DNA from: Nitrosopumilus sp.
GTDB lineage: Archaea; Thermoproteota; Nitrososphaeria; Nitrososphaerales; Nitrosopumilaceae
Reading direction: 5' to 3'
NCBI GenBank assembly: GCA_965207075.1
Contig: CBDBLO010000002.1
Coordinates: 288,001 to 352,000 of the forward strand
Length of the DNA stretch: 64,000 nt
Positions 16,768 to 41,492 of the stretch are shown here, in pieces. Made by a program: the position numbers and the translations under genes. The notes under the pieces were generated by a model, which saw only the letters and a list, made by a program, of their open reading frames with translations, did no database searches and had not been told where the DNA came from. Within the stretch, counting starts at the first letter, position 1. Each line of letters begins with the position of its first letter.

Positions 16768-17814
16768 TCAGCTCTTTCTGATGTCGGTAAAGGGGGCGCC
16801 CAGAACAATCTTTCTTGCGTAAGCGGCGGCCTCCGTTACTGCGGATCCTACGGACTCGGTGTCGCGTCCTAGCAGCCTTGCCATCACCCCAGTGTTGCCG
16901 CTCATTACGGTGGCGCCGCCTGCAACTTCGCCGTGCCGGAGTATGATGTCGTCGATGCCCTTTTGCAGGACTTCCACGTATTTTTTTTCTGTAATAACGT
17001 ACAACGAGGATACGACGTCGTACTTTTCCATTATTCCAAACGACTTTATGTTCGGCGTTGATTTGTTTGCGGATTGTGACTGTAGATGCGATGTCTGTTT
17101 CGGGGTCGATGTTTGTGAGGATGACGATAAAGATGCTGTTCGCGGCGATGCTGCTGACGCTGCTGACGCTGATGGCTGCAAGGACACGATCCGCGGCTCC
17201 ATCCTTGCCGCATCCACAAACCTGAACCTCTCGTCCTGATCCGTGACGCGCATCCTCAGACTGCATGACTCGTACGCAAACGACTCGCCCATTCCGACGC
17301 GCCCGGGTGATACGGTCTCCGCGTACACCAGAGTTGCAGTCTCGTGCACGGACATGACCGCATCCTGCCGGAACCTGGATCCCGCGTACGGGATTATCTG
17401 GTCGGGCATGTACTCCAGATACGAGCTCTCGCCCAGCGACAGGCGAAGCGACGCCCGCGCCGCCGGCTTCTTTTCTGTACGCGCCGAGTCTCTTGTCCCG
17501 TATATCCTGGTGGCCCCCTGCGTCGTGATGTGGGCCCTCGCCCCGCCGCCCAGATCAAACCTCGTGACGTGCCTGTCGCCCTGGAGTATGCCGCCGGACG
17601 TGGACGTGACATATACGTACGCCATGTCTGGCAGGGATTGCTCACAGTAGAGCGCCCTCTGTACCGCCAGGGGCGGCTCTGCACGCTGGCCCGCAATTAT
17701 CGTCTTGGCGCCGTCATGGAGCAGCGACAGGTGCAGGCGCCCCTCCATGCCTGTCCTGTGGGGCGGTATGACGTCCGCGGCAGCCGCGGCCTCCGCCCCG
17801 GCCGCGGCCCCCAT
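16768..17814 (-). CDS. ureD: Urease accessory protein UreD
   Basis: Motifs SGGILQGD, ITTQGATRIY, LEYMPDQIIPY and PGRVGMGESF. The ATG overlaps the ureG stop (TGATG). Contains a Ser-rich insertion. Confidence 0.92.
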   Translation of the reverse strand: MGAAAGAEAAAAADVIPPHRTGMEGRLHLSLLHDGAKTIIAGQRAEPPLAVQRALYCEQSLPDMAYVYVTSTSGGILQGDRHVTRFDLGGGARAHITTQGATRIYGTRDSARTEKKPAARASLRLSLGESSYLEYMPDQIIPYAGSRFRQDAVMSVHETATLVYAETVSPGRVGMGESFAYESCSLRMRVTDQDERFRFVDAARMEPRIVSLQPSASAASAASPRTASLSSSSQTSTPKQTSHLQSQSANKSTPNIKSFGIMEKYDVVSSLYVITEKKYVEVLQKGIDDIILRHGEVAGGATVMSGNTGVMARLLGRDTESVGSAVTEAAAYARKIVLGAPFTDIRKS

Positions 17815-18488
17815 CACCGTTGTACTTCCCCCCCATTTTTGGCGCGGCTCTTCGGGGGAGCCCCGAACAGCAGGTTTCTTACTATCAGGTCCGCCACCTC
17901 CGGTACGCCCCGGTCGGTCATGCAGTTGACAAAGACAAACGGCTTTTCCGCGCCCCTGATTCTCAGGGCGTCTGATCTCATCACCTCCAGGTCCGCGCCC
18001 ACCATGGGCGCCAGGTCCGTCTTGTTTATCACAAGCAGGTCGCAGCTCGTTATTCCAAGCCCGCCCTTCCTTGGATACTTGTCGCCGCCGGCCACGTCTA
18101 CGATGTAGATGAAGTAGTCTGCAAGCAGCGGACTGAATGTGGTGGTTATGTTGTCGCCGCCGCTCTCTATTATTATGAGGTCCAGCTCGGGGTGCTCCCT
18201 TTCGATGTCCTCTATTACCGATATGTTCATTGACGGATCCTCCCTCACGGCCGTGTGCGGGCACCCGCCAGTCGCCAGCCCCACGACCAAGTTCTCCGGC
18301 AGCAGGCCGCGCTCCGTGGCCAGGTTGGATCTCATGCGGTCCGCGTCCTCCTTTGATATGACGTCGTTTGATATTATGCTCACGCTGTATCCGCGGCCCG
18401 CCAGCACGGGCACCACGCGCTCAATCAGCATGCTCTTTCCGGAGCCCACGGGCCCGCCTATTCCGATCCTAGGTATCCTCTCTGCCAT
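17814..18488 (-). CDS. ureG: Urease accessory GTPase UreG
   Basis: Motifs GGPVGSGKS, TGGCPHTAVRED, ESGGDN and NKTDL. Confidence 0.97.
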   Translation of the reverse strand: MAERIPRIGIGGPVGSGKSMLIERVVPVLAGRGYSVSIISNDVISKEDADRMRSNLATERGLLPENLVVGLATGGCPHTAVREDPSMNISVIEDIEREHPELDLIIIESGGDNITTTFSPLLADYFIYIVDVAGGDKYPRKGGLGITSCDLLVINKTDLAPMVGADLEVMRSDALRIRGAEKPFVFVNCMTDRGVPEVADLIVRNLLFGAPPKSRAKNGGEVQR

Positions 18489-18505
18489 ACCGCGCCGTCC
18501 TCCCG

Positions 18506-19240
18506 TCACGTAATGAACATTTTTGCATCCGTCCTCGCATGGGCCATCTGCAGCGCCTCGGCATGCGGGCAGAACTGCCACATCTCCGACACGTCCTTTG
18601 CAACCGACGACGCGGCGGCCTCCCGCATGACGGGCTTTAGCTCGTGGATTATCCCCTGCGCCTCAAAGTGATGTATCATTCCCAGCCGCAGCGCCGCGCC
18701 CACCATGTTTGAGACAAACCCGTACAGCATGATCAGCGCGGCCTTTTCTTTTCCGATCCCGAGCGCGCGGCAGCACACGCCCAGTGCGACCGGGTAGACC
18801 CCGGAGGCCCTCCCGTCATCTATGCACTCCATGTATCTTGCCAGGCGCGCGTCGCCGCAGAACCCTGCAACGCACCTGCACAGCTGCACTCCGGAGCGCA
18901 CGTACGCGTCCCTTGCCTCCCGCACCGTCTTTGCAGAGCAGCATGCGGCGTCTATCTCCTCTATGGCATCCGTGTCCTCGTGTGGCGCCGCGTCGTACGC
19001 GTTTGCAAGGGCCACGCAGTCTGCAACGCCGACCTGATGTGTGATCAGATCCCTGCACAGCGCCGACAGCTCCCGCGCGCCGGTTACCATCCCCCTGGCA
19101 AACATCAGCTCCAGCCCGCCCGATGACGCAAACATTCCGGTGGGAAACAGCGAGTCTGATATCTGCAGGGCGTCAAGATCGTCCGGTGCGCAGGCGCCGG
19201 GGCCGTCCCCCGCCGCCGCTTCCGCGTCACTGGTGCCCAT
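18506..19240 (-). CDS. ureF: Urease accessory protein UreF
   Basis: LQISDSLFPTGMFASSGGLE and C-terminal AHARTDAKMFIT. Confidence 0.94.
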   Translation of the reverse strand: MGTSDAEAAAGDGPGACAPDDLDALQISDSLFPTGMFASSGGLELMFARGMVTGARELSALCRDLITHQVGVADCVALANAYDAAPHEDTDAIEEIDAACCSAKTVREARDAYVRSGVQLCRCVAGFCGDARLARYMECIDDGRASGVYPVALGVCCRALGIGKEKAALIMLYGFVSNMVGAALRLGMIHHFEAQGIIHELKPVMREAAASSVAKDVSEMWQFCPHAEALQMAHARTDAKMFIT

Positions 19241-19793
19241 GCACGTCGGCCCCCGCATGCGGCACAAAGATCTCACTTGCAATCTTCAGTTCGACGCCGC
19301 CCCCCACCTGGCCGAGCAGCCTCTCAAACGTCTCTAGCTCCGAATCGTCCTGTATGGGAAACGACACGGTCCCTTCCTCCCCGTTGACCGAGATGGGGCG
19401 GTGCCTGTTCCCTATTACGTGGCCCATGACCAGGCATGGCTCAAAACAGTCGTCGGCAGACGGCATGCCATGGTTGTCCTCCGGATCCCAGTCCAGAAAC
19501 CTTGCCACTATGACCTTTTCGGGTGACTGCTGAATAATCAATGGGGGCCTCTTTGGGTTCTCGCTTTGCAGTATGTCCCCGTGGCGCAGCGTCCTGCCCC
19601 GGCTCAGGTTTATCCCCACCTCGGCCCCCGACTCTGTCCTTACAAGCTGCCTGCTCTTTGCCATGTCGGCCCTTGGCATCACCACTGTGTCAAACGATGC
19701 CCCGCCGCCCCCTGCGCGCCCTTTGTCGCCGCTGAGTTTTTTGCCGCCGTCGTTGAATTTGTTGCCAGCTATATCGGCGTAGACGTCCAGCAT
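19227..19793 (-). CDS. ureE: Urease accessory Ni chaperone UreE
   Basis: LRHGDIL, GHVIGNRHRP and C-terminal HAGADVHGH. Confidence 0.93.
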   Translation of the reverse strand: MLDVYADIAGNKFNDGGKKLSGDKGRAGGGGASFDTVVMPRADMAKSRQLVRTESGAEVGINLSRGRTLRHGDILQSENPKRPPLIIQQSPEKVIVARFLDWDPEDNHGMPSADDCFEPCLVMGHVIGNRHRPISVNGEEGTVSFPIQDDSELETFERLLGQVGGGVELKIASEIFVPHAGADVHGHQ

Positions 19794-19893
19794 GTCGTGA
19801 CTGGCCTGCGTGTTAAATTATACTTTGCCTGCGCCTCCGCACCGCTCGTCCTCCTCAATTATTAAATATGTCACGCACGTAGGTTCAATATTG
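19794..19893. promoter_or_regulatory. Divergent promoter region between ureE and ureA
   Basis: AT-rich TATA-like tracts near 19812-19822 and 19857-19869, each roughly 20-30 nt from the respective start codon. Confidence 0.55.
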
Positions 19894-20196
19894 ATGCTCA
19901 CGCCGCGGGAGATTGACAAGCTGCACGTGTTCCTTGCGGCCCAGCTTGCGATGCGCCGCAAGGAGCGCGGCCTGAAGCTCAACCATCCGGAGGCGGTCGC
20001 CGTAATCACGGATCACATACTGGAGGGCGCGCGCGACGGCAGGACCGTGCCCGAGCTGATGAGCTCGGGCAGAAGCGTGCTCTGCAAGGACGACGTGCTG
20101 CCGCAGGTTCCGGATCTGATACACTCGATACAGGTGGAGGCCACGTTTGACGACGGCACAAAGCTCGTGACCGTCCACGACCCGATAGCAAGGTGA
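19894..20196 (+). CDS. ureA: Urease subunit gamma
   Basis: [20 protein letters not shown] and [18 protein letters not shown]. Confidence 0.98.
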
Positions 20197-20331
20197 GGAT
20201 GCGTTGTTGTGCTTGCGTGGTGGAGACTGTGATGGTGGCAGGTGGTAATGGTGGCAGGTGATGATAATAATGATAATTACGACGACGACCACCAGGATCG
20301 CATTGAAAACCACGGGGGCGGAGGCCGGGCA

Positions 20332-20706
20332 GTGACCACACGCGAAATACCCGGCGAGTACATCATAGCCGGTGGCGACATCGTACTCAACCGGGACAGG
20401 GACACCGCGTCGGTGCAGGTCACGAACACGGGGGACCGCCCTGTGCAGGTCGGATCGCACGCCCACTTTTTTGAGGCAAACAGGGCCCTGTCCTTTGACC
20501 GGCAAAGGGCGTACGGGTTCCACCTGAACATTCCCGCCGGGACGTCCGTCCGGTTCGAGCCGGGCGACTCGCGCACAGTCAGCCTCGTCGCGTACGGCGG
20601 GGAGAGGACGGTGTACGGCTTTGGCGGGCTGGTGAACGGGCCGCTCGACCAGAAGAGGGACGAGGCCCTGCGCCTTGCTACAGAGAGGGGGTACAGGTCA
20701 CAGTGA
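20332..20706 (+). CDS. ureB: Urease subunit beta
   Basis: [24 protein letters not shown] and [15 protein letters not shown] at 20332 is preceded by GGAGG; the ORF stays open upstream to 20242. Confidence 0.97.
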
Positions 20707-22415
20707 CGCTTGAGATTCCACGACGCCGGTACGCCGAGCTGTTCGGGCCCACCGCCGGCGACAGGGTCCGGCTTGCCGACACGGACCTGATAATAGAGAT
20801 CGAGCGCGACCTGCTCGTGCACGGCGACGAGATCGTCTTTGGCGGCGGGAAGAGCGCGCGCGACGGGATGGGCCAGGCCAGCGGCGTCCTGCGGGAGGAT
20901 TCGCTTGACCTGCTGATTACGAACGCGATCGTCATGGACCCGGTGCTTGGCATCGTAAAGGCCGACATCGGGATAAAGGACGGGCTAATCGCGGGCGTCG
21001 GGAACGCCGGAAACCCCCACATCATGGACGGCATAGAGATGACCGTGTCGTCTAACACGGAGGTGATCGCCGGCGAGCACACGATATGCACGCCGGGCAC
21101 CATAGACACTCACATCCACTTCATCTCGCCGCAGCAGGCGGTGGACGCCATATGCAACGGCACCACCACCATGATAGGCGGCGGCACGGGCCCCGCCGAC
21201 GGCACAAAGGCCACGACCTGCACGCCGGGCTCGTGGAACATACACCGCATGATAGAGGCCGCCGAGGAGTACCCTCTCAACTTTGGGTTCCTCTGCAAGG
21301 GCAACGACTCTAGGCCCGAGTCGCTTCTGGAGCAGGTGGGGGCCGGCGCCTGCGGGCTGAAGCTGCACGAGGACTGGGGGACGACCCCCGCCACCATAGA
21401 CTCGGCCCTGCGCGTGGCAGACGAGACGGACACGCAGGTCGCGATACACACCGACACGCTCAACGAGTGCGGCTTTGTGGACGATACCATACAGGCCATA
21501 GCGGGCCGGACCATCCACACGTACCACACGGAGGGGGCCGGCGGGGGGCACGCGCCCGACATAATGAGGGTGGCCGGGGAGCCTAACATACTGCCGTCCT
21601 CCACCAACCCGACGCGCCCGTTCACGGTGAACACGTTGGCGGAGCACCTCGACATGATGATGGTTTGCCACCACCTGAACCCCTCCGTCCCGGAGGACCT
21701 CTCGTTTGCAGAGTCGCGCATACGCGGCGAGACCATAGCGGCGGAGGACGTCCTGCACGACATGGGCGCCATATCCATGATGTCCTCTGACAGCCAGGCG
21801 ATGGGAAGGGTGGGGGAGGTTACCACCAGGAACTGGCAGACCGCCGACAAGATGAAGCGGAGCGCGGGGCGGCTTGCCGGCGAGCGCGGCGACAACGACA
21901 ACTTGCGCGTGAAGAGGTACCTTGCCAAGATCACCATAAACCCTGCCATCACGCACGGGATATCGGCCCACGTCGGCTCGCTTGAGCCCGGCAAGCTTGC
22001 CGACATCGTGGTGTGGACGCCGCAGTTCTTTGGCATAAAGCCCAAGATGATCATAAAGGGCGGGTTTGTCGCGTACTCGCTGATGGGCGATCCCAACGCG
22101 AGCATACCGACGACCGAACCGGTGTACTACCGCCCGATGTTCGGGGCGCTCGGCTCGGCCAAGCACTCGACGTCGGTCACGTTCACGTCAAAGCTGGCCA
22201 TTGCCCGCGGGCTTTCGGACAGCCTTGGAACCTCAAAGAGGCTGGTGCCAGTCGAGAACTGCCGCGGCATAGGCAAAAAGGACATGATATACAACGACCT
22301 GACGCCTGAGATACGCATCAATCCTGAGACCTACGAGGTCGTGGTGGACGGCAGTCCGGCCACTGCCGAACCGGCGACGCGCCTGTCCCTTGGAAGGTTG
22401 TACAGCCTGTACTAG
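20703..22415 (+). CDS. ureC: Urease subunit alpha
   Basis: [39 protein letters not shown] and SSDSQAMGR; all Ni ligands are present. Confidence 0.99.
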
Positions 22416-22494: not shown

Positions 22495-24714
22495 ATGCGC
22501 ATGGAGCGCGGACAGCCTGCGACTACCACCCTCTCTACGATAACGGCATCAGTGGTGGCGCCGCTTGAATCTATTGCGTCTGCTGCGGCTGCTAACAAAA
22601 AGGCGATCATGTCCCGGCAGGCGTTTTTGCCGTCTGCGGCAGTGGCGCTGGTCGCCGTACTGGCTATATCCTGCGTCCCAAACCCGGCGTTTGGTGCCGG
22701 TGCCATCGCGGAAGGATTCACGATAGGCGACGTGCTCGACGAGAGCTGGGGCTGGTTCATAGTTGTGGGCCTCGGCGCCGTGTTCGCGATCGTAATCACG
22801 ATCGAGACAAAGGTGGAGGAACGATACCTAGGCGTCTCCCAGACCTCAGAGTGGTTCAACACGGCTGGCAGGGTGATCAAAACAGGCCTTACTGCGGCTG
22901 CCATTGTATCTGCCTGGACGTGGGCCGCCACGCTGCTGCAGTCGTCGACGGTCGCCTACCAGTACGGGGTAAGCGGTCCGTTCTGGTATGCGGCAGGCGC
23001 GTCCATACAGGTCCTTCTCTTCGGCATACTGGCAATAGAGCTCAAGCGCAAGGCGCCCAACGCGCACACGTTCCTGGAGATCATAAGGGCCAGGTACGGC
23101 GGCGGCGCCCACCGGGTCTTTCTAGTGTTCGCCCTGATGACCAACATGATAGTTACAGCCATGCTGCTGCTCGGCGGCGCCGCGGTCGTCAACGGGCTGA
23201 CCGGCATGGACATCTCGCTTGCCGCGTTCCTGATCCCGATAGGCGTGATGATATACACGCTGGTCGGCGGGCTAAAGGCCACGTTCGTTGCAGACTACAT
23301 GCATACCATAATCATATTCATCGTGATACTGATATTCGTCGGCACGGTCTACTTTGTCAGCCCCATTACGGGCGGCATCGAGGGGATGTACGACAAGCTC
23401 GTCGAGGCCGCGCGCATAAGCCCGGTGGAGGGCAACGCGGCGGGCGCCTACCTTACCATGGCGTCCATCGGCGGGCTGATATTCGGCGTGATCAACATAG
23501 TGGGCAACTTTGGCACCGTGTTTGTGGACCAGGCGTACTGGCAGCGCGCGATTGCCGCGCGCCCGCAGTCCACGGTAAAGGGGTTCCTGCTAGGGGGCGC
23601 CTGCTGGTTTGCCATTCCGTTTACGCTTGCAACTACAATGGGCCTCACGGCCGTCGCGCTTGGCGTGGACCTGACGCCAGAGCAGGTCCAGCTCGGGCTT
23701 ACGGTACCCGCCGCCGCATCGGTTTTGATGGGCGAGGTGGGCGCCGTGATGGTGCTGACCATGCTGTTCATGGCCGTGACGTCGGCGGGATCCGCCGAGC
23801 TGATCGCCGTCTCGTCGCTGATCACGTACGACGTGTATAGGACGTACAAGAACCCGTCGGCGTCGGGAAAACAGCTGCTAAAGGTCTCGCGCGCCACCAT
23901 AGTCGGGTTCGGCCTGGGCATGGGGGGCCTGGCGGTGATACTGCTGAGCATGGGACTGTCACTGGGATTCGTATACCTGGCGATGGGCGTGCTGATCGGC
24001 TCTGCCGTGATACCGATAGCCCTGACGATCACGTGGAAGCGCACAAACAAGTACGCCGCCACGATAGGCGCGATTGCGGGGCTCTTCGTGGCGCTGGGCA
24101 CGTGGGTCGGCGTGGCCGCGTCGCTGCCAGAGTTCGGGGGCGAGGTGTCGCTTGCCAGTCTGGGGCACAACTACTCTATGCTCTTCGGTAACATAGCCGG
24201 CATACTTACGGGCGGCGCCATCGCGGGCCTGGGAAGCCTGGCAAGCAGGACCAAGTTCGACTGGGCATTAATGAGGGAGAGGATAAAGCTGGTGGACATC
24301 AGCCAGGCCGAGAAGGCGGCGCTCGACGCGGACGAAAAGACGCTTGCGCGCGCGTTCAAGTTCAGCCTCAAGGGAGGCGGGATCATGACCCTGGTGCTGA
24401 TCATAGCGTGGCCCATGCCGCTGTTCTTCTCCGGGTACGTGTTTGACATCGGGTTCTACTCTCTGTGGGTCGGCATAGCCGTCGTATGGGTGAGCGCCGC
24501 GACCTTTTTTATAGTTGGGCTGCCCATCATAGAAGCGAGGCATGGAATCGCACAGGTCGCCAGGGGCAGGAAGGCAGTCGTCACGGAATCCGGGGCGCAG
24601 GAGGCCGTCGAGGATGATCCTGCCGATGAAGCCGGCGGTGGCGACGATGACGACAGTGGTGGCGACGACGACGCCAAAAGCGGAAAGGACGACGGGGCGA
24701 AACCGGGGGCGTGA
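22495..24714 (+). CDS. dur3: Dur3-type urea:Na+ symporter (second paralogue, no USP domain)
   Basis: SAWTWAATLLQSS and NFGTVFVDQAYWQRAIAA. Signal-peptide-like N-terminus; the true start may be near 22609. Confidence 0.94.
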   Translation: MRMERGQPATTTLSTITASVVAPLESIASAAAANKKAIMSRQAFLPSAAVALVAVLAISCVPNPAFGAGAIAEGFTIGDVLDESWGWFIVVGLGAVFAIVITIETKVEERYLGVSQTSEWFNTAGRVIKTGLTAAAIVSAWTWAATLLQSSTVAYQYGVSGPFWYAAGASIQVLLFGILAIELKRKAPNAHTFLEIIRARYGGGAHRVFLVFALMTNMIVTAMLLLGGAAVVNGLTGMDISLAAFLIPIGVMIYTLVGGLKATFVADYMHTIIIFIVILIFVGTVYFVSPITGGIEGMYDKLVEAARISPVEGNAAGAYLTMASIGGLIFGVINIVGNFGTVFVDQAYWQRAIAARPQSTVKGFLLGGACWFAIPFTLATTMGLTAVALGVDLTPEQVQLGLTVPAAASVLMGEVGAVMVLTMLFMAVTSAGSAELIAVSSLITYDVYRTYKNPSASGKQLLKVSRATIVGFGLGMGGLAVILLSMGLSLGFVYLAMGVLIGSAVIPIALTITWKRTNKYAATIGAIAGLFVALGTWVGVAASLPEFGGEVSLASLGHNYSMLFGNIAGILTGGAIAGLGSLASRTKFDWALMRERIKLVDISQAEKAALDADEKTLARAFKFSLKGGGIMTLVLIIAWPMPLFFSGYVFDIGFYSLWVGIAVVWVSAATFFIVGLPIIEARHGIAQVARGRKAVVTESGAQEAVEDDPADEAGGGDDDDSGGDDDAKSGKDDGAKPGA

Positions 24715-24720
24715 TCCCTC

Positions 24721-25290
24721 GTGACACACTGCGCCGGGTGCGGCATCACCCTTGGATGGAAGAAATACAAGTTCCAGCGCATGTGGCGCATACCGGGCTA
24801 CTATTGCAGGCCCTGCATGCTGGAGCTCGGCAAGGAGTTTGACAAGCACGCCAAGATTGTAAGCCCTACTAGGAAGTGCGATCTATGCGGCGTCGACTAT
24901 TACTTTATGAAGCCGTACAACAAGGGCGGCACCCACCACAACTACTGCCACGTCTGCTACGAGGCAGTATCAAACGGGGCCGTTCCCGTCCCCACGGCGC
25001 CAAAATCAAAAAACGAGCTGCCGAGGCCCCCGCAGAAGCTGCCCCTTGTAATGATAATCTTTGCCGGACTGGGCGGCCTGATGATGCTGCTTGGACTGGG
25101 CTTTACCATGATGTCCACCGGGGAGGATGCCAACGTGACGCACATCCTGTTTGGCGCCATTACGACCGCGCTCGGGTTCGTCCTGATTCGAAAGACGCTA
25201 AAGTCGCGCAGCCTGCTACTGGGCCGCGGAAACGTGGGAGGCGGCAGCGGCAGACCCGAGTCGCCCAATCCGGAGACTACGACCCGCTAG
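24721..25290 (+). CDS. Zn-ribbon membrane protein (four CxxC plus two predicted TM helices)
   Basis: CAGC, CRPC, CDLC and CHVC followed by two hydrophobic segments; starts 6 nt after dur3. Confidence 0.8.
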   Translation: MTHCAGCGITLGWKKYKFQRMWRIPGYYCRPCMLELGKEFDKHAKIVSPTRKCDLCGVDYYFMKPYNKGGTHHNYCHVCYEAVSNGAVPVPTAPKSKNELPRPPQKLPLVMIIFAGLGGLMMLLGLGFTMMSTGEDANVTHILFGAITTALGFVLIRKTLKSRSLLLGRGNVGGGSGRPESPNPETTTR

Positions 25291-25323: not shown

Positions 25324-26184
25324 CTATATCCCCAGCGCTGCGGCCACGCCGCTCGCAATGATATACGCGCCAAACAGCATGGCGATGCTCCCCGACGCGT
25401 ACCGGATTGCCCTCCTTGCGGTGTTGGTGCTGCCGCATGCCGCAAACAACAGTGACAGGGCGCCCGCCACCAGCACCATGCCGATCGTCGATCCCGCGCC
25501 AAACACTGACGCAAGTAATAGCGGCAGCGGTAGCAGCGCCCCGGCATCGGCCGCGGACGACGCTATTGCGTCCGGCATGGCCGACAGGGCCAACACTACC
25601 AGCCCCCCGCTTCCGGCCAGGCCGTGCACACATCCTATGACGTACGGGACGTGGCTGTGCGAGTGGCTCATGCTGCCGTCATCACCCACACCCTCGCGTT
25701 TGTCGTCGTGGCTGTGCGGATGGGAGTGCGTCGTTCCGTCCTCGTGCGTGTGGACGTGCGAGTGCGTCCAGAGCCGTGACAGGAATGGCAGCGTCCACCC
25801 TTTTGTGCCGCCGCCCCTCTCGCGTATCGCCGATATTCCAAGCAGGATCAGCATCACGCCCACCCCCATCTCGAATATGTCAAACAGCTCGTGTGGGATG
25901 TTTACGGATAGTATGATGACTAACACCGCCACTAGAAATATGCTAGACGCGTGCCCGAACCCCCATAACAGGCCCGATATGGAGCCCGTTATGCCTGCCC
26001 TCTTCTTACTCTGTTTCTCTTCCTCCTTCTTCCCCCGTCTGACGGACGACAGCATTGCGGTTACGTGATCCGGCTCCAATGCATGGTACAGCCCTACCAG
26101 CAGTCCGGCCCCCAACAACAGCAGGGGGGCCTCTGCATACGGCGCATGGTATGCGCCTGCAAGCAGCCCGTCCAACACGGTCAT
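25324..26184 (-). CDS. His-rich nickel transporter (NiCoT/UreH-like)
   Basis: HALEPDH, WGFGH, HSHVHTHEDGTTHSHPHSH and HGLAGSG; multiple TM helices. Confidence 0.88.
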   Translation of the reverse strand: MTVLDGLLAGAYHAPYAEAPLLLLGAGLLVGLYHALEPDHVTAMLSSVRRGKKEEEKQSKKRAGITGSISGLLWGFGHASSIFLVAVLVIILSVNIPHELFDIFEMGVGVMLILLGISAIRERGGGTKGWTLPFLSRLWTHSHVHTHEDGTTHSHPHSHDDKREGVGDDGSMSHSHSHVPYVIGCVHGLAGSGGLVVLALSAMPDAIASSAADAGALLPLPLLLASVFGAGSTIGMVLVAGALSLLFAACGSTNTARRAIRYASGSIAMLFGAYIIASGVAAALGI

Positions 26185-26711
26185 GGCATCTCCCCCGAGA
26201 TCATCCTGCCGCCACTGCCGCCGCCATTGCTGTTGCTAAACAATGATGCTGGAGATGCTGATGGCTGTCCCTGACTCAATCCCTGTTTCATATATGATGT
26301 GGGCCTGATTGGATCCTGTATCACAATATTTACCGCGTCGCCTCCTGTCCTGTCCGTGATGCCGATCTCAAGGCGCTTGATCATGTCCGGCACGCCGATC
26401 ATCACCTGGTGGTCAGACAGCATGTCCGGCAGCCCCTCCTCGATTGCAGGCGTACGCGAGTCCTGGCGGTCTGCTGCCGCAGACGAGTAAGCGCATGCCC
26501 CGTACAGCAGCATGACGTCGTTGATGTTTATCCTGCGGTTGCCGGCGATCATGTTCTGGATCGAGTCGGCCGCTGCCGCAAGCATCTCCTCGTCGCTTCT
26601 GTCCCTGATATCGTACCGCCTGGTCAGCGGGCCCATGTCCCTGTCTGCTCCCCGCGCGGTTACCCGGATGGTGCACTGCAGGAGGCGGCTGCTGTGTGTA
26701 TTACGCGTCAA
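26181..26711 (-). CDS. Divergent urease gamma-subunit-like protein
   Basis: By-eye alignment to the local UreA: RININD~KLNHPE, LSDHQVMIGVPDMI~[21 protein letters not shown]~VTVHDPI. Has 4-nt overlaps with both neighbours. Confidence 0.7.
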   Translation of the reverse strand: MTRNTHSSRLLQCTIRVTARGADRDMGPLTRRYDIRDRSDEEMLAAAADSIQNMIAGNRRININDVMLLYGACAYSSAAADRQDSRTPAIEEGLPDMLSDHQVMIGVPDMIKRLEIGITDRTGGDAVNIVIQDPIRPTSYMKQGLSQGQPSASPASLFSNSNGGGSGGRMISGEMP

Positions 26712-27823
26712 CCGCGATCAGGAATCTCCGCCCGTGGGTTTCCAAAGTTGTACGTGTTGCCCGTACCGCGATAGTCCCTCGGCCTGACGGGGCTGCCGCC
26801 CTCAAGCCCCCTCTTTGTAAGCGAGAGTCCCGCCAGCAGCTCCACTATCAGCCGCTGGCCAAGGCCCGAGGTAATCCCGCCGTTGTACGAGCTGTTGTCG
26901 CTGACGTCGTACGCCGGCGCGACCTCCACCAGATCCATCGCAAAGCGGTCCGGGTCAAAGGATTTCGAGAGCAGCCTGATCATGCGTATGCCCTCCCTGG
27001 ATGTCAGTCCGTTGGGCTCCGGCTCCCCGGTGCCGGGGGCGTATGCGGGGTCAAACGAGTCTATGTCCCAGCTCAGGTATACCGCGTCCGTCCCGTCGTT
27101 TGCGCGGTCCGCAATCTCCTTTGCGATATAGTCTATGCCCATCTCCTCCACGTCGAGCATCGTAAACCATTGAAAGTCCTGGTCGGACATCCACTTGTAC
27201 AGATCCGGCCCCGGCCAGTATCCGCGCGGTCCCACAAGCGAGTAGTTGCGCCCCTTCATGCACCCGATCTCCATTATGCGGCGTATGTGGGCCCCGTGGT
27301 CGTACTTGTAGCCAGTCAAGCCCTGCGGCGCGCAGTCCGCGTGCGTGTCAAAGTGTATCATGCCTATCCGCTTGTACTTTTTTGCAAATGCCCTTACGTT
27401 GGCATACGTTATGGAGTGGTCCCCCCCGAGCATGACCGGGATGCCGTCTTGCTCGAGCACCTCCTTGACCTTTACGGTCATCCTCTTGTGTGACTCTATC
27501 ACGTCGCCCGGCGAGACCTGCACGTCGCCGTAGTCCACGGTTCTGAACGTACCAAACGGGTCGGCCCCGGTCTCTATGTTGAACCGCTCGTACGGCGGGG
27601 ACGGTATGGTGGACGCGGCGCGCAGGGCACGCGGGCCGTACCTCGCACCCGGCCGTATCGTGGTGCCAAAGTCAAACGGCTCGCCTATTATCGCCACGTC
27701 GGGGTTTGCCTCTACCAGCTCGGCGTGGCTTCTGATCCAGGGCAGGTGCAGAAATGTGTTTATTCCCACAAACGGCGCGACGTCGGCCCCCCGGTAATCG
27801 TCACCGTAAAACTCCATCCCCAT
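26708..27823 (-). CDS. Ureohydrolase (agmatinase/arginase/guanidinase family), substrate unknown
   Basis: RPGARYGP, GGDHS, DTHAD and SWDIDSFDPAYAPGTGEPEPNG; binuclear metal ligands are intact. Confidence 0.95.
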   Translation of the reverse strand: MGMEFYGDDYRGADVAPFVGINTFLHLPWIRSHAELVEANPDVAIIGEPFDFGTTIRPGARYGPRALRAASTIPSPPYERFNIETGADPFGTFRTVDYGDVQVSPGDVIESHKRMTVKVKEVLEQDGIPVMLGGDHSITYANVRAFAKKYKRIGMIHFDTHADCAPQGLTGYKYDHGAHIRRIMEIGCMKGRNYSLVGPRGYWPGPDLYKWMSDQDFQWFTMLDVEEMGIDYIAKEIADRANDGTDAVYLSWDIDSFDPAYAPGTGEPEPNGLTSREGIRMIRLLSKSFDPDRFAMDLVEVAPAYDVSDNSSYNGGITSGLGQRLIVELLAGLSLTKRGLEGGSPVRPRDYRGTGNTYNFGNPRAEIPDRG

Positions 27824-27995
27824 GATAATCAATTATGTGACGCATTGTGGATAAATAAAGATTCCAAGTAAAGTACGCATGCGCGGCGCGACACCGACAA
27901 GGCGCGCCGGATCGTATATGGGGGAACGGCCTTCCGCGCGCGCCCTGCTCGCGCGGCAACATCCAAAGTTATAAGCGCGTGCGTCTAGTTCGCGC

Positions 27996-31057: not shown

Positions 31058-32701
31058 TTGGCGGAGATAGACGGCTTTGGGGCCGCGATCATACTGTTCA
31101 TTATACTTACACTGGTAGTCGGCGTCCTGTCGGGCCGGCTCATAAAGCAGAGCGGCAAGCGGCTGATTGTCGCGGGCAAGAGCCTGCCGCTTGCCATGGT
31201 CGGGACGATGCTCGCCGCGCAGGCCGTGGACGGCAACTCGTCGCTTGGCAACGTGGCGCTGGTCTTTGAGTTCGGGTTCTGGGCCGGGGCCGTCGTGCCC
31301 ATAGGGCTGGGCGTGTGCCTGCTGATCACGGCCACGTTCTACGCGAAGCCCCTCAACAAGATGTCGATGATAACCCTGCCGGACTTTTACTACAGGAGGT
31401 ACGGCAACGCGGCAGAGGGCATATCAGGCGTACTCATGATAATCAGCTTTACCGTCCTAGTCGCGGGGAACCTGGCCGCAAGTGGGTTCATACTGGAGAT
31501 CGTGTTCGGGATTGACTTTTTCTGGGGGATTCTATTCTCGGCCCTGGTGGTGGTTGCGTATACCTGCGCAGGCGGACTGTTTGCGTCCGCGTACACCAAC
31601 CTGTTCCAGGTGTACCTTGCAATCGCCGCGTTCTGGGTCGGATTCCTGTACTTTGCGGGTGGGTTTGCAGACGCCCCGTGGGCTGTCATATACGCGAATG
31701 CGCCGCCCGAGTTCTTGGACCTGTCGGGGCTGTTTGACATCGGCAACGGGGCCCTGATAAACTGGGGCGCCATACTGGCGCTGGGACTGGGCGATATCAT
31801 CGCCCTGGACTTTATGGAGCGCGTGTTTGCCTCAAAGGATCCGAAGACTGCAAGGCGGGGCGCATACATGGGCGGGGCCCTCACCCTGTTTACCGTCGTG
31901 CCCACTAGCATGCTTGGGATCGTGGCGCTCTACTACCTGCCGGGTGACACGGATCCCGGGTTCGCGCTCCCGCTGCTCAGCACCTTGCACATGCCCTTTG
32001 CGGTGGGCGCGGCCATACTCATGGGGGTGATCGGCGCATCCATGTCCACTGCCAGCGGTGGATTGCTGGCCATATCAAGCGTCGTGTCGCGCAACCTCGT
32101 AAACAGGATAATACGCAGGAGGTGGCTTGGAAAGCCCGGCACAAGCGACCAGAGCCTGCTGTGGATGACGAGGGTCACGCTATTCCCCATGATTGTGGCG
32201 GGAACCACGCTGGGATACCTGGTGCCCAACCCCGGGGTCTACCTGGTGCTGGCCTTTGACATCATGTTCGCGGGGGCCTTTGCCCCGCTTACCTTGGGGC
32301 TGTTCTGGAAGAAGGCAAACATGCCTGCTGCTGTCGCGTCCCTCCTGATAGCGTCGTTCCTGCGGCTGTCGTTCTTCTTTACCATGCCCGAGGAGTGGGC
32401 GGGACTGGACACCATGATCCCGCCGGTCGTCTCGTTCGTGGTGTTCATCACCGTGGCCCTTGCGACCCAGAACCGGTATCCGGGAAAGGCCAGGCACGAC
32501 GTGCGCGACTACGTGCCGCCCGAGGAGGACGTGATTGCAGGCGAGGACCTAAGGCACTTTAGGGAAGACTTCATGAGCTCGGGACTCGAGGGCGTGCCGC
32601 AGGACTCCGGCGGCGACGGCGGGGAGGACTCCGGCGGCAAGGACGGTGGCGCAAAGGGGGTCGGCAACGTGCCCGGCGGCGTGCCGAGCAAGGGAGCCTG
32701 A
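31058..32701 (+). CDS. Sodium:solute symporter (SLC5/SSS, choline-transporter-like clade), substrate unknown
   Basis: VAGKSLP, TLPDFYYRRYG, GGLFASAYT, MERVFASKD and ASMSTASG; lacks the Dur3 signatures. Confidence 0.9.
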   Translation: MAEIDGFGAAIILFIILTLVVGVLSGRLIKQSGKRLIVAGKSLPLAMVGTMLAAQAVDGNSSLGNVALVFEFGFWAGAVVPIGLGVCLLITATFYAKPLNKMSMITLPDFYYRRYGNAAEGISGVLMIISFTVLVAGNLAASGFILEIVFGIDFFWGILFSALVVVAYTCAGGLFASAYTNLFQVYLAIAAFWVGFLYFAGGFADAPWAVIYANAPPEFLDLSGLFDIGNGALINWGAILALGLGDIIALDFMERVFASKDPKTARRGAYMGGALTLFTVVPTSMLGIVALYYLPGDTDPGFALPLLSTLHMPFAVGAAILMGVIGASMSTASGGLLAISSVVSRNLVNRIIRRRWLGKPGTSDQSLLWMTRVTLFPMIVAGTTLGYLVPNPGVYLVLAFDIMFAGAFAPLTLGLFWKKANMPAAVASLLIASFLRLSFFFTMPEEWAGLDTMIPPVVSFVVFITVALATQNRYPGKARHDVRDYVPPEEDVIAGEDLRHFREDFMSSGLEGVPQDSGGDGGEDSGGKDGGAKGVGNVPGGVPSKGA

Positions 32702-32740: not shown

Positions 32741-34585
32741 ATGAAGTACCCCGACATATTCAACCCCGACCTGTCGCGCATCGGCGTGCAGGAGTCGCAG
32801 ATGTACAACCTGGTTGCCGGCGAGCTCGTAACCCAGACGGTAAGGACGGCGCTCGGGCCGCGCGGCATGATGAAGGTGTACGTCGACATCCTCGGCGAGG
32901 ATACCCTGACCGTGCACGGGGGCGCGTTTCTGCGCAAGATTGACGTGGACCACCCGGCCGCCAAGGCCGTCATCGACGCGGTAAACGCGGTGGACAACCA
33001 CGTGGGCGACGGAACCACGACCGCGGCGGTGCTGATCGGGGCCCTGCTCAGGAATGCCAAGGAGATGCGCGCCCTGCGCATCCCGACTGCCAGTATCGTT
33101 GCGGGATACGAGGCGGGGCTGGAGGCCGCGCTGGCGGAGCTGGAGCGCATAAAGTTCGAGGGCAGGGCCTCGGACCGCCGCACCATGCGTGATCTGGCGC
33201 GCTGCTGCATCAGGGGCAAGGCGCTCGGGGAGCTCTGTGAGGGGAGCCGCGTCCGGGATGGCCGGGAGGGTGGCGCCGGAAACGGCACGGGCAATGGCGC
33301 CGGAAGTGGCGACATCGTCGACATGCTGGTACGCGCCGCATACTGCACGTCTGACGTGTCCTCCGGACGCGCCCTTACTGATGATGTCAAGATAGAGGAA
33401 AAGCCCGGCAGCGCGGCGCAGACCGAACTGGTAATGGGGACCGTGATCGACAAGCCCGTGGACAGCGCCGCCATGCCCCGCGCTATACGCGACGCCCGGA
33501 TACTGCTTGTAAGCGAGCCGCTTGAGCGCAGCCGCACCAAGACAGAGTCGGAGATTTCGATGGACTCTCCCGGACAGATGAAGGAGTTCCTGCGGCAGGA
33601 GTCCGAAGACGTGCGCGGCGCGGTGAGCGGGGTGATCGGCAGCGGCGCCAACGTGGTCATATCCCGCAAGGGGATTGACGACGAGGCCCAGGAGCTGCTT
33701 GCAAGGGGCGGCATAATCTCCGTGAGGCGGGTCAAGCACAACGACATATGGTGGCTTGAAAAGGCGACGGGCGCCGTCACATGCACGGACATACGCGACA
33801 TGTCAGGCGCGAGGATGGGGCATGCGGACCTGGTATGCGAGAGGAGCGTGGGCGGGGACAGGATGCTCTTCGTCGAGTCCGGGCGTGACGACGCAAAGTC
33901 CGTGACGCTCCTCCTGCGGGCCAACTCAAAGAGGTACCTGGACGAGTTTCACCGCACCGCGCTCAACGTGCTGCACGTGCTGAGGGATTTCATCGAATGC
34001 CCGTACCTGGTGTACGGGGCGGGCTCGTGCGAGGCCATTCTCGCGCGGCGGGTCAGGGACGAGTCGGGCGTGATGGCAGGGAAGGCGCAGGTCGCGGCCG
34101 CAAGGTTTGCAGACGCGCTCGAGTCGGTTACGATGGCCCTTGCCGAGAACGTCGGGATTGAGCCGCTGGACGCGCTGCCGCTCCTGCGCTCAAAGGTGCA
34201 CGGCGACCGCCGGGGATCGCGTGCTGCAGCAACCCGTAGCTGTGGTAACGCTGGAGGGGCCGGTGACGGGGACAACGGCGCTACCGCCTCCAACCCGCCC
34301 TCGGGCTGGTACGGCGTCGACCACGCCTCCAGAAGCATATGCGACGTCTCCCTCCTGCCCTACAGCGTCATAGAGCCGTATGCCGTAAAGGCCCAGGTCC
34401 TCAAGAGTTCCGTCGAGGCCGCATGCGCCGTCCTGAACGTGGATGACGTCTTTGTCAAGGACTTGATCGACAACACGCACTGCCATATAGACGGCACCGT
34501 GCACGCCCACAAGGATCCTGGCAGGAACCACAACCACTGGGAGCAGGAGGGCCTGGAGCAGCGCCAGATGCATCACTACTATTAG
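32741..34585 (+). CDS. Divergent group II chaperonin (thermosome-like) with a His-rich C-terminal tail
   Basis: LGPRGMMK, HPAAK, VGDGTTT, LEKATGA and VIEPYAVKAQVL. Tail reads THCHIDGTVHAHKDPGRNHNHWEQEGLEQRQMHHYY. Confidence 0.93.
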   Translation: MKYPDIFNPDLSRIGVQESQMYNLVAGELVTQTVRTALGPRGMMKVYVDILGEDTLTVHGGAFLRKIDVDHPAAKAVIDAVNAVDNHVGDGTTTAAVLIGALLRNAKEMRALRIPTASIVAGYEAGLEAALAELERIKFEGRASDRRTMRDLARCCIRGKALGELCEGSRVRDGREGGAGNGTGNGAGSGDIVDMLVRAAYCTSDVSSGRALTDDVKIEEKPGSAAQTELVMGTVIDKPVDSAAMPRAIRDARILLVSEPLERSRTKTESEISMDSPGQMKEFLRQESEDVRGAVSGVIGSGANVVISRKGIDDEAQELLARGGIISVRRVKHNDIWWLEKATGAVTCTDIRDMSGARMGHADLVCERSVGGDRMLFVESGRDDAKSVTLLLRANSKRYLDEFHRTALNVLHVLRDFIECPYLVYGAGSCEAILARRVRDESGVMAGKAQVAAARFADALESVTMALAENVGIEPLDALPLLRSKVHGDRRGSRAAATRSCGNAGGAGDGDNGATASNPPSGWYGVDHASRSICDVSLLPYSVIEPYAVKAQVLKSSVEAACAVLNVDDVFVKDLIDNTHCHIDGTVHAHKDPGRNHNHWEQEGLEQRQMHHYY

Positions 34586-34683
34586 GCCCTGACTGCCCGC
34601 ATTCCTGCCCCGTGTCATGGAGTGGGGGGGGGGGGAGGAGAAGGATTGAACGGTTACCGCGCCGCTATCGTCACCGCTATGGG

Positions 34684-40354: not shown

Positions 40355-41492
40355 GGGTGGAAATGACCCTGCCTACATTTTATACCTTTGTCAGATTGGC
40401 TGCAGGTTGCGGAGCCCAAAAATCGGCCTCCTCCCTCCCGCCAACTGCGACATCGCGTTCTTCACCACCACCACTCACTGTCCGCTCATCCGTGGCAGCC
40501 GTGTTCCTCTCCCCGGTGCCACCTCCTTGCAAATTCCTGCAGGCGCCACCGCGGCCCCTCAGACGACATGTGCGGCCCGTCGGTTGCCACCGCGCGAACA
40601 GGCCCGTGGGATCGAGTGATCTCGCCAGCGGACCTGGATTAGTGGGAAGGGGGAAGGGAAGGGCGGGAAATGACTTGTACTGCATCTCGCGCGCAGTCTT
40701 AGGCCTCCCTTGGCAAGTGCCTTGCTGCAGACGCGGCGTATGCCGGGCTCGGCCGGCAGACTTTGTGTCGGCCGTTACGTGCAGCTTGCCAAACGGCTTT
40801 TCCGCGCGTGCTCGTCCCGTAATGCAATTCTCGCGGATGATGAGGACGGGTCCGGACGGGCCGAGGGCAAGGTCGTACTTTTCCCCGTCACGCGCCGTGC
40901 GGTTCCGGCCGGCTCTTCCCTGACGCCGCTGATGCTCTGTCCCCCTCTATTTTTTGCGTCTTCAAATTCGTAAATGGACGCGTCAAGCTTTCAGGATCCC
41001 CCTGCGTAACGGAGTTCGGGCGAGTCGTCGTCTCCAGACGACCTGCTGTACATGCCCCGGTTCTGCCCGCATCCCTGCCGCGTAAGGGACGTGTGACTGC
41101 CGGGGAGACGAGCAGGCCGTTGGTGTAACTCGGAGGGACATGTTCCTGCGGCAGTTGAGACTTCTCGGCTCCCCCTTTTCACGCGGTTCCTGTACGTGTG
41201 CCACAGCGTCTTGTCCATCTTGGCACGTTTCTGTGGCTCCACTGCCACCGCCTCGGCCATGCGGCACGGCCAAGCATCCGGGTATGAGTCCACTTTCAAG
41301 ACGCGCCCAGATCCTAATCGCATGGCCCGATCGTGACGTTTCGCCACTCTAGGCGGGACTGTGCCACACAGCCTGTACACGCTCAGGCCTGTTCCGAGTT
41401 CGTGCCTGAGCGCACCCTGAGTTTTGAAATTTCAGGCACGGTGGCACGCCAACCGATGCTTTTTTATATGCCTCTGGTGACCCTTGTTTAGA

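Follow-up and report, generated by a model that had tools for sequence, protein, structure and literature searches.

Here we focus on a 64,000-nucleotide stretch of DNA from the ammonia-oxidizing archaeon Nitrosopumilus sp. (contig CBDBLO010000002.1, positions 288,001 to 352,000; hereafter the window) and, within it, on the gene for a group II chaperonin, P0001, that ends in a histidine-rich tail. The gene is part of a conserved six-gene module of ammonia-oxidizing archaea (AOA), which encodes a transporter of the sodium:solute symporter (SSS) family, the chaperonin, a TPR-repeat protein, an arginase-family ureohydrolase, a UreA-like protein and a NicO-like permease. A complete set of urease genes lies in the same window (Table 1). 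An initial annotation, made by eye from the sequence, had read the protein as a urease-linked chaperonin that might load nickel and in which both catalytic aspartates are apparently replaced.

The chaperonin gene is the longest open reading frame (ORF) at its place. Pfam Cpn60_TCP1 (PF00118) covers residues 30-572 of its product with 370.3 bits (cut-off 34.3) and is matched from profile position 1 to 487 of 490. When solved chains were searched with phmmer, thermosomes and CCT subunits came out as the best matches, with E values as low as 5e-87. The three NCBIfam models that rank highest are also thermosome models, and P0001 falls short of the cut-off of each: the alpha and beta equivalogs NF041082 and NF041083 (408.7 against 450 and 393.8 against 400, respectively) and the subfamily model TIGR02339 (398.5 against 671.1). 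Besides P0001, the host genome (2.23 Mb, 95% complete) encodes two canonical thermosomes (631 and 626 bits), to which P0001 is 35-37% identical. The His-tailed protein is thus a third, divergent paralogue, in line with the specialized thermosome subunit that had been suggested. In the databases its close homologues go by the names of 'hypothetical protein', 'thermosome subunit alpha' or 'chaperonin GroEL'.

From the alignments, it is evident that both nucleotide-binding loops are in place, as the initial annotation had it, and that their key residues are invariant among the best 120 database homologues of P0001, to which all residue counts in homologues refer (Table 1). Only positions 93 and 94 of the phosphate-binding loop vary (T/V/I/S/A). 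The catalytic aspartates of chaperonins are required for ATP hydrolysis, and P0001 lacks the catalytic acidic residues (D386 with D60 in the chaperonin Mm-cpn) that serve as a criterion for group II chaperonins. Ungapped phmmer blocks against the solved Mm-cpn set H59 opposite D60, which we take to be the position of GroEL D52, and N409 opposite D386. Aligning P0001 with both canonical paralogues in MAFFT gave the same result, with TITNDGATIL facing TLTVHGGAFL and ..HDAL.. facing ..LNVL.., so that the replacement of the two Asp by His and Asn, first proposed by eye, is upheld by both methods. At position 59, 117 of the close homologues have His and the other three have R, Q or Y, one apiece; at position 409, all 120 have Asn. 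The title of one matched structure, 'Lidless D386A Mm-cpn variant' (3j02), is consistent with a catalytic role of D386.

These substitutions hold for the clade of the window and fail family-wide. Deeper tail-bearing members have Asp at both positions (L007, L008, L009, L012 and P0134), Asn and Asp (L011), Ser and Asp (L010) or Asp and Ser (L005 and L006). In a quick maximum-likelihood tree of 30 rows, with the two canonical sequences as sole outgroup, the H/N group (19 rows), the N/D and S/D pair and the D/S pair each received an SH-aLRT support of 100. Because each of these three altered clades is so supported, the catalytic site was altered on at least three separate occasions. The double Asp replacement is therefore a feature of one clade and not of the whole tail-bearing family.

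The remainder of the protein keeps the build of a thermosome. The built-in lid, or apical helical protrusion, is retained: residues 189-488 align with Mm-cpn 167-464 with zero deletion, while lidless constructs align in pieces. In an AlphaFold2 (AF2) model of the monomer (mean predicted local distance difference test, pLDDT, 82.4; predicted template modeling score 0.80) the body is confident and a long helix spans residues 277-300 of the apical region (pLDDT 79-92). Two Gly-rich insertions are peculiar to the closest, GC-rich relatives of P0001 and are predicted to be disordered, with pLDDT below 50 at residues 169-189 and 491-518.

Where the canonical paralogues carry Gly/Met/Pro-rich tails in the MAFFT alignment, P0001 has a His motif of 37 residues. 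Its last 36 residues, THCHIDGTVHAHKDPGRNHNHWEQEGLEQRQMHHYY (34475-34582), contain 8 His and 1 Cys, arranged as three HxH and one HH, just as the initial annotation had counted them when it noted the loss of the usual Gly/Met tail. The consensus reads T-H-x-H-x-D-G-x-x-H-x-H-(6)-H-x-H ... G-x-x-Q-R-x-x-H-H-Y-Y. Across 21 tails from two families, 13 columns are invariant (T, H, H, D, G, H, H, H, G, Q, R, H, Y), and seven His columns are invariant or nearly so. The second family, which belongs to the same order, has a weaker version of the tail with 43-51% identity (of the unpublished genomes G092 and G228, the tally behind this search includes only G228), and the single Cys is unconserved beyond the family of the window.

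Conservation of the tail, which had been named as a check on its importance, is high. The tail closes 119 of the 120 best homologues, the exception (P0013) being a truncated record of 493 aa. It is 90% identical, as against 58% for the body, in the 106 homologues whose bodies are less than 70% identical to P0001. None of 395 body segments of equal length matches this conservation, and the best of them (82%) lies over the ATP loops. Third codon positions in the tail are only 22-70% identical between genomes while the residues stay unchanged; they are thus free to vary, and selection on the tail acts at the level of the protein. The same freedom rules out a feature on the opposite strand that overlaps the tail (ORF 34190-34618, minus) as the cause of its conservation.

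A profile of the tail matched 21 proteins among 1.84 billion representative proteins. Ten of these were inspected, and they comprise seven chaperonin C-termini or fragments and three repeat proteins. The matches to chaperonin C-termini include P0116 and two full-length records of the Nitrosopumilaceae type; P0122, a protein of 2392 aa, has 19 matched stretches. Units resembling THSHADGTVH build two of the repeat proteins, one of which has a lipoprotein-type leader. Repeat proteins of this kind suggest that the tail unit may be a general metal-binding element. Several database records of 40-65 aa consist of nothing but the tail, and the tail-bearing chaperonin homologue P0132 has an additional His-rich insertion of about 50 residues in its intermediate or apical region.

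The tail is a fixed motif, with columns invariant over two families, and the loose His-rich storage run that the initial annotation had allowed for does not describe it. Storage may nonetheless be considered for the protein as a whole. With 8 His in each subunit, a ring or some smaller assembly could act as a metal store or buffer in the manner of Hpn or HspA and sequester nickel or another metal for the module, the chaperonin body being a scaffold and not a foldase. Loss of the catalytic Asp on three independent occasions under an invariant tail would fit such a role, as would the further His-rich insertion in the body of P0132 and the tie between the His-rich tail of mycobacterial GroEL1 and copper homeostasis described in two reports (PMC10170517; bioRxiv 10.1101/766162). 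However, the tail has invariant residues that are not ligands (Gly, Gln-Arg and Tyr-Tyr) and so differs from a variable His run, the nucleotide loops and the whole apical domain are constrained with a lid region free of deletions, and a dedicated, co-occurring TPR protein suggests work between proteins. We consider a store distinctly unlikely.

With the protein so described, its partners can be sought in the genomes that carry it. We compared 301 genomes of the family to which the window belongs. The tallies of the tail, of ureC and of the hydrolase include the unpublished genomes G092 and G228, whose removal lowers the counts by at most 2 and leaves the conclusions unchanged; they contributed to counts only and supplied none of the sequences used. 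The tail occurs in 99 genomes and ureC in 140, and 94 have both; the five tail genomes without ureC are 61-85% complete. This agrees with the prediction that homologues should not occur independently of ureohydrolase or urease genes. An orthologue of the hydrolase (77-100% identity) is found in 97 genomes, 92 of which also have the tail. Among the seven tail genomes without hydrolase, six are 54-84% complete and the seventh is the complete genome G100. There, only the last 60 codons of the chaperonin remain (L027; G100:C1, 9794-9973), 73% identical and beside a NicO-like gene, and a hydrolase orthologue was not found in it; this remnant may reflect decay of the whole module, as the missing hydrolase suggests, or else be a tail peptide in its own right. 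Five genomes have the hydrolase and no tail, and in the three inspected a contig ends beside the gene.

The urease genes behave differently. No chaperonin is found in 46 of the 140 ureC genomes, and 42 urease-positive genomes, many of which are complete, have neither chaperonin nor hydrolase, including the single-contig genomes G038, G142, G207, G229, G274 and G299, which are 98-99% complete. Because of these 42, the ureohydrolase, which the initial annotation had offered only as an alternative client, is the tighter partner. Distances point the same way. All 67 chaperonin-hydrolase pairs on the same contig lie within 24 kb, and 66 within 15 kb, while 15 of the 64 chaperonin-ureC pairs on one contig are 90 kb to 1.3 Mb apart with the hydrolase still within 24 kb. 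In nine loci with a distant urease, the chaperonin is still adjoined by at least one of the SSS, hydrolase, TPR and permease genes. Since same-contig pairs with the hydrolase are always close and those with urease are sometimes distant, the primary association is with a hydrolase module that is nested in urease-bearing genomes. The link to urease first drawn for the window thus stands as far as its complete urease cluster goes, and gives way to the tighter tie with the arginase-family module. As a separate matter, the small-genome genus g24 has ureC in 22 of 36 genomes and the chaperonin in only 5; its ureC open frames encode 700-722 aa compared with the usual 570-600 or so, which suggests that the urease alpha subunit is extended or fused.

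These distributions also bear on an explanation by stress. Zhong et al. (2020) link an additional thermosome near SSS and urease genes to pressure in the text of their study (PMC7265257), and a subunit for general stress or high pressure that joins the housekeeping ring might be proposed for P0001 on that basis. The gene is, however, present in 18 of the 27 sampled genera independent of genome size, and its presence tracks the hydrolase and urease genes and not habitat. In addition, short contigs from RNA libraries, 90-99% alike, fall inside the SSS and chaperonin genes and come from two sponge metatranscriptome runs of two studies; none spans both genes, they are not proof of transcription, and the stretches that they leave uncovered carry no information. 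A stress or pressure subunit is, in our view, hardly credible.

Table 1. Features of the chaperonin gene and its surroundings, with positions in the window.
Feature	Positions	Strand	Evidence or note
His-tailed group II chaperonin paralogue, P0001, 614 aa	32741..34585	+	Pfam Cpn60_TCP1 2e-110
LGPRGM nucleotide-binding loop, residues 38-43	32852..32869	+	G39, P40 invariant in 120/120 homologues
H59 codon, at Mm-cpn D60 position	32915..32917	+	phmmer and MAFFT alignments
GDGTTT phosphate-binding loop, residues 89-94	33005..33022	+	D90, G91, T92 invariant in 120/120 homologues
Gly-rich lineage-specific insertion 1, about residues 164-190	33230..33310	+	missing in Mm-cpn and in homologues of 560-575 aa
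N409 codon, at catalytic Asp (Mm-cpn D386) position	33965..33967	+	phmmer and MAFFT alignments
Gly-rich lineage-specific insertion 2, about residues 486-524	34196..34312	+	gap relative to solved thermosomes
Conserved His-rich C-terminal motif, residues 578-614	34472..34582	+	alignment A1, 21 tails
Arginase-family ureohydrolase, 374 aa, candidate client	26708..27832	-	Pfam Arginase 5.6e-81
Small UreA (urease gamma)-like protein, between hydrolase and permease genes	26181..26711	-	hhalign
NicO-like putative nickel/cobalt permease with His-rich loop (..HTHEDGTTHSH..)	25324..26184	-	Pfam NicO, below cut-off
Cytoplasmic TPR-repeat protein, 417 aa	27996..29249	+	Pfam TPR families
Sodium:solute symporter (SSS/SSF)	31058..32701	+	Pfam SSF 2.1e-23
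Urease cluster	16768..22415	ureD, ureG, ureF, ureE -; ureA, ureB, ureC +	Pfam
SSS transporter directly 3' of ureC	22495..24714	+	Pfam SSF 5.8e-23; NCBIfam sss 3.9e-66

What the module may do is best judged from its other genes. The nearest solved relatives of the hydrolase are a guanidinobutyrase (3nio, 2e-51), the Nitrospira inopinata guanidinase (9fek, 1e-47), the Synechocystis guanidinase GdmH (7esr/7oi1, 7e-47) and metformin hydrolase (1e-34). The metal-ligand motifs of the arginase family, GGDHS, DxHxD and DxD, are kept in all 16 aligned orthologues, across which the hydrolase is 77-94% identical. A second arginase-family gene elsewhere in the host genome (a frame of 316 aa) is presumably the housekeeping agmatinase. 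Prediction of a complex of the tail with the arginase-family enzyme and two Mn ions gave a score of 0.00 against a mark of 0.32, which counts neither for binding nor against it.

Between the hydrolase and the permease lies a small ORF, P0142, the UreA-like nature of which emerged only by profile-profile comparison: hhalign of A3 against A4 gave a probability of 97.3% (E 2.6e-11, 86 columns), while BLASTP of P0142 against UreA gave zero matches. The ORF is kept in 8 loci. Pfam and NCBIfam at default thresholds returned no match for P0142, P0143, P0144 or P0145. Through the UreA-like protein, the hydrolase might be in physical contact with urease or with the proteins that mature urease.

Of the 71 genomes with the permease and hydrolase genes on one contig, 63 have the two within 1 kb of each other. 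The nearest Atlas cluster of the permease is 'high-affinity nickel-transporter' (0.96), and the ten best family-assigned matches concur. Besides an HAxEPDH motif, the protein carries a His loop with the pattern H-x-H-x-H-x-D-G-x-x-H-x-H-x-H, and a loop of the HxHxDGxxHxH type recurs in 11 homologues. This loop resembles the tail motif of the chaperonin, and one homologue has an identical DGTVHAH.

The SSS gene of the module precedes the chaperonin gene on the same strand, with 39 bp between them. Of the 13 other H/N-clade loci, 12 have an orthologue of this SSS gene next to the chaperonin (L013-L024, with none found in L014), mostly upstream and on the same strand. The TPR protein has about ten repeats, and neither a signal peptide nor a membrane segment is visible in its sequence. 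Its orthologues are found in 70 of the 301 genomes (a tally that includes the unpublished G092), of which 68 have the tail-bearing chaperonin and the other two the hydrolase. It may thus serve as a co-chaperone or adaptor that recognizes the invariant ..HHYY end of the chaperonin.

The EEVD ends of Hsp70 and Hsp90 bind TPR co-chaperones. By analogy, the C-terminus of P0001 might mainly be a docking peptide for the TPR protein of the module, with the His residues secondary. The restriction of TPR orthologues to module-bearing genomes would speak for docking, as would the apparent lack of a signal or membrane segment and the (near-)invariance of the H-H-Y-Y end and the G-x-x-Q-R block, which are atypical as metal ligands. 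Set against this, the deeper clade has a conserved tail, yet only 4 of its 24 genomes give a TPR match at E 1e-40; genes for shorter TPR proteins (22-27% identity) are, however, located close by. Moreover, the H-x-H-x-D-G-x-x-H-x-H unit is also found in the permease loop and the repeat proteins, which argues for metal binding. Docking as the main role has a slim chance in our estimate, and docking and metal binding are not mutually exclusive.

The urease cluster itself was assigned from Pfam matches to UreD, cobW, UreF, UreE_N, Urease_gamma, Urease_beta and Urease_alpha/Amidohydro_1. Other genes of the window can be mentioned briefly. Just 3' of the SSS transporter that follows ureC, an ORF (24721-25290, +) encodes CxxC pairs and then a membrane segment; it is 73% identical to a protein of another genus (L013) and has zero family matches. 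A third SSS-family transporter (7450-9813, +) carries a universal stress protein domain fused to its C-terminus. Four ORFs on the same strand (9942-16712, +) end just upstream of the urease cluster and encode a protein of 412 aa with zero Pfam matches (9942-11180), a HerA-like protein (DUF87; 11177-12985), an Mre11-like phosphoesterase (12982-14274) and a Rad50-like protein (14271-16712). Farther away, a protein of 643 aa (41484-43415, +) combines DUF6851 with the second helical-bundle domain of vanadium chloroperoxidase.

Taken together, these data lead us to favor, with about even confidence and from comparison of sequences, the view that P0001 is a chaperonin impaired in hydrolysis that binds a metal, probably nickel, and is devoted to the maturation of the arginase-family enzyme; urease would act downstream or be a second client. 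The proposed process would involve several steps. First, the thermosome fold and the nucleotide-binding loops are retained. In the clade of the window, both acids that activate hydrolysis are gone, and nucleotide would probably be bound and hydrolyzed slowly or not at all. The His, Asp and Tyr residues of the tail would then form a ligand array that binds a transition metal; the C-terminal tails of group II chaperonins point into the central chamber. The metal is most likely nickel, for which there is indirect support in that the module also encodes a NicO-type permease whose His loop resembles the tail. The ring would hold the nascent arginase-family enzyme, and possibly urease subunits, and present the metal to the binuclear site, a job equal to that of the HypA/HypB-like accessory proteins for the bacterial, Ni-dependent GdmH. 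The SSS transporter would import a guanidino compound, the matured hydrolase would release urea from it, and urease would convert that urea to ammonia for energy and nitrogen.

Several points weigh against this view. Sequence does not reveal which metal would be bound: manganese is the classical metal of arginase-family enzymes, AOA are rich in copper, and the tails of mycobacterial GroEL1 bind copper. Because deeper members of the family retain both Asp, loss of hydrolysis is not essential to the role of the family. The tail (residues 575-614) has pLDDT below 50 in the AF2 model of the apo monomer and is thus predicted to be disordered. The permease stays below the Pfam cut-off for NicO (E 1.6e-4; 21.5 bits against 27.7), and 22 hydrolase genomes give no NicO match. 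NicO-like genes occur in 128 of the 301 genomes (the unpublished G092 and G260 included) and, since 53 of these lack the hydrolase, the permease is not exclusive to the module; for the same reason it was rejected as a discriminator between a role for urease and one for the hydrolase. The genomes are related, so that the counts are not independent events and the tallies overstate independence. Finally, 49 of the 64 chaperonin-ureC pairs on the same contig are within 30 kb, including 31 within 6.5 kb, and in loci L007-L010, L012 and L014 the immediate neighbor of the chaperonin is ureA or ureD.

This last point leads to what was the main reading of the initial annotation, a chaperonin specific for urease, which would fold, stabilize or nickel-load that enzyme while the arginase-family module is a mere neighbor that feeds in urea. 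Besides the close pairs and the adjoining ureA or ureD, such a role would account for ureC in 94 of the 99 tail genomes and for the UreA-like protein of the module. The UreE of the window has no His-rich tail and ends in ..VHGHQ, so that extra nickel capacity could help, and stabilization of urease has been proposed in the text of Abby et al. (2018; PMC5797428). It is harder to reconcile with the 46 urease genomes that do without the chaperonin, with the 42 among them that lack the hydrolase as well, and with the 15 same-contig cases in which urease is far off and the hydrolase near. On balance, we think urease unlikely to be the specific client.

Returning to maturation of the arginase-family enzyme, a more detailed version may be drawn from the shared motifs. 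The ring could be a metal-insertion chamber that works independently of hydrolysis: nickel from the NicO-type permease would be passed on through the shared H-x-H-x-D-G-x-x-H-x-H unit, the TPR co-chaperone would act on ..HHYY, and the guanidino-compound hydrolase would be loaded in place of HypA/HypB-type factors. We offer this version tentatively and regard it as rather doubtful in its entirety. If true, it would open a route from a guanidino compound through urea to ammonia in marine, sponge-associated and soil AOA.

AOA are major players in the nitrogen cycle, and the module is present in about one third of the 301 genomes. It points to a guanidino compound as an unrecognized substrate that would feed urease and ammonia oxidation, and it is a concrete, testable candidate for metal supply to Ni-dependent hydrolases of the arginase family. 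Chaperonin paralogues dedicated to a single pathway are rare, and a fixed metal-binding motif together with repeated loss of the catalytic Asp would mean a new use of the thermosome scaffold. For the databases, the module refines the annotations 'agmatinase SpeB', 'thermosome subunit alpha' and 'hypothetical protein'.

Parts of this system are already in print. Earlier genome papers on AOA (N. gargensis and N. viennensis) may also mention the chaperonin gene. The text of Abby et al. (2018; PMC5797428) describes a putative chaperonin, an Hsp60 homolog (arCOG01257), that Nitrosocaldus and soil AOA share in their urease loci, suggests that it stabilizes urease and states that it was not found in Nitrosopumilales. 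In the text of Zhong et al. (2020; PMC7265257), a hadal metagenome-assembled genome is noted to have an additional, phylogenetically distinct thermosome close to its SSS and urease genes, and this thermosome is connected with pressure. Judging from these texts, both are almost certainly members of the same gene family as P0001. The tail-bearing chaperonins of the second-family loci L007-L009 are found directly beside ureABC. The passages compared from the two papers make no mention of a His-rich tail, of substitutions in the ATP site or of a link to arginase-family, NicO-like or TPR genes. A 2024 paper reports, in its text, an SSS gene clustered with 'agmatinase (SpeB)' in soil AOA (PMC11131427). 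In the running text of the literature searched, we found no description of the archaeal tail, of the ATP-site changes or of the hydrolase link; papers on Hsp60 and urease in these archaea mention the paralogue or list Hsp60 genes and do not describe the tail. What is new here is these three features; the paralogue near urease had been reported.

Among known systems, the one nearest in function is that of GdmH, the nickel-delivery proteins of which are HypA/HypB-like and not chaperonins. The likeness is a functional analogy only: as its text describes, the operon of Synechocystis encodes a Ni-dependent, arginase-family guanidinase with accessory proteins that load nickel into the binuclear site, with urease as a later enzyme of the pathway (PMC12186494). 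The guanidinase of the comammox bacterium N. inopinata is also Ni-dependent, and its loading factor is given as not known in the text of that study (PMC11410670). The archaeal hydrolase is as close to guanidinobutyrase as it is to GdmH, and guanidine and nickel are candidates for its substrate and metal.

A different likeness is found in HspA of Helicobacter pylori, a GroES homologue with a C-terminal, His/Cys-rich tail that binds nickel and serves urease. HspA is, like P0001, a protein of the chaperonin system with a His-rich extension at its C-terminus, and Abby et al. (2018) cite it in connection with the stabilization of urease. It differs in being a co-chaperonin lid and not a ring subunit, in being bacterial and in having a tail unrelated in sequence to that of P0001. 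In mycobacterial GroEL1 (Cpn60.1), a duplicated chaperonin has likewise exchanged its Gly/Met tail for a His-rich, metal-binding one, and a role in metal handling, as opposed to general folding, has been proposed (PMC10170517; 10.1101/766162). GroEL1 is a group I, bacterial and copper-linked protein, in contrast to the group II, archaeal P0001. Its tail is a short His run as opposed to a motif of 37 residues with fixed spacing, and we know of no link between GroEL1 and ureohydrolases.

The closest kin by structure are the canonical thermosome alpha and beta subunits (Mm-cpn, 3kfb and 5w79; Thermoplasma, 1a6d), with which P0001 shares the fold, the domain order, the nucleotide loops and the lid. 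It departs from them in scoring below three NCBIfam cut-offs, in the replacement of D60 and D386 and in the His motif that stands in place of the Gly/Met tail. Moreover, its patchy distribution, unlike that of a canonical thermosome, is tied to a metabolic module.

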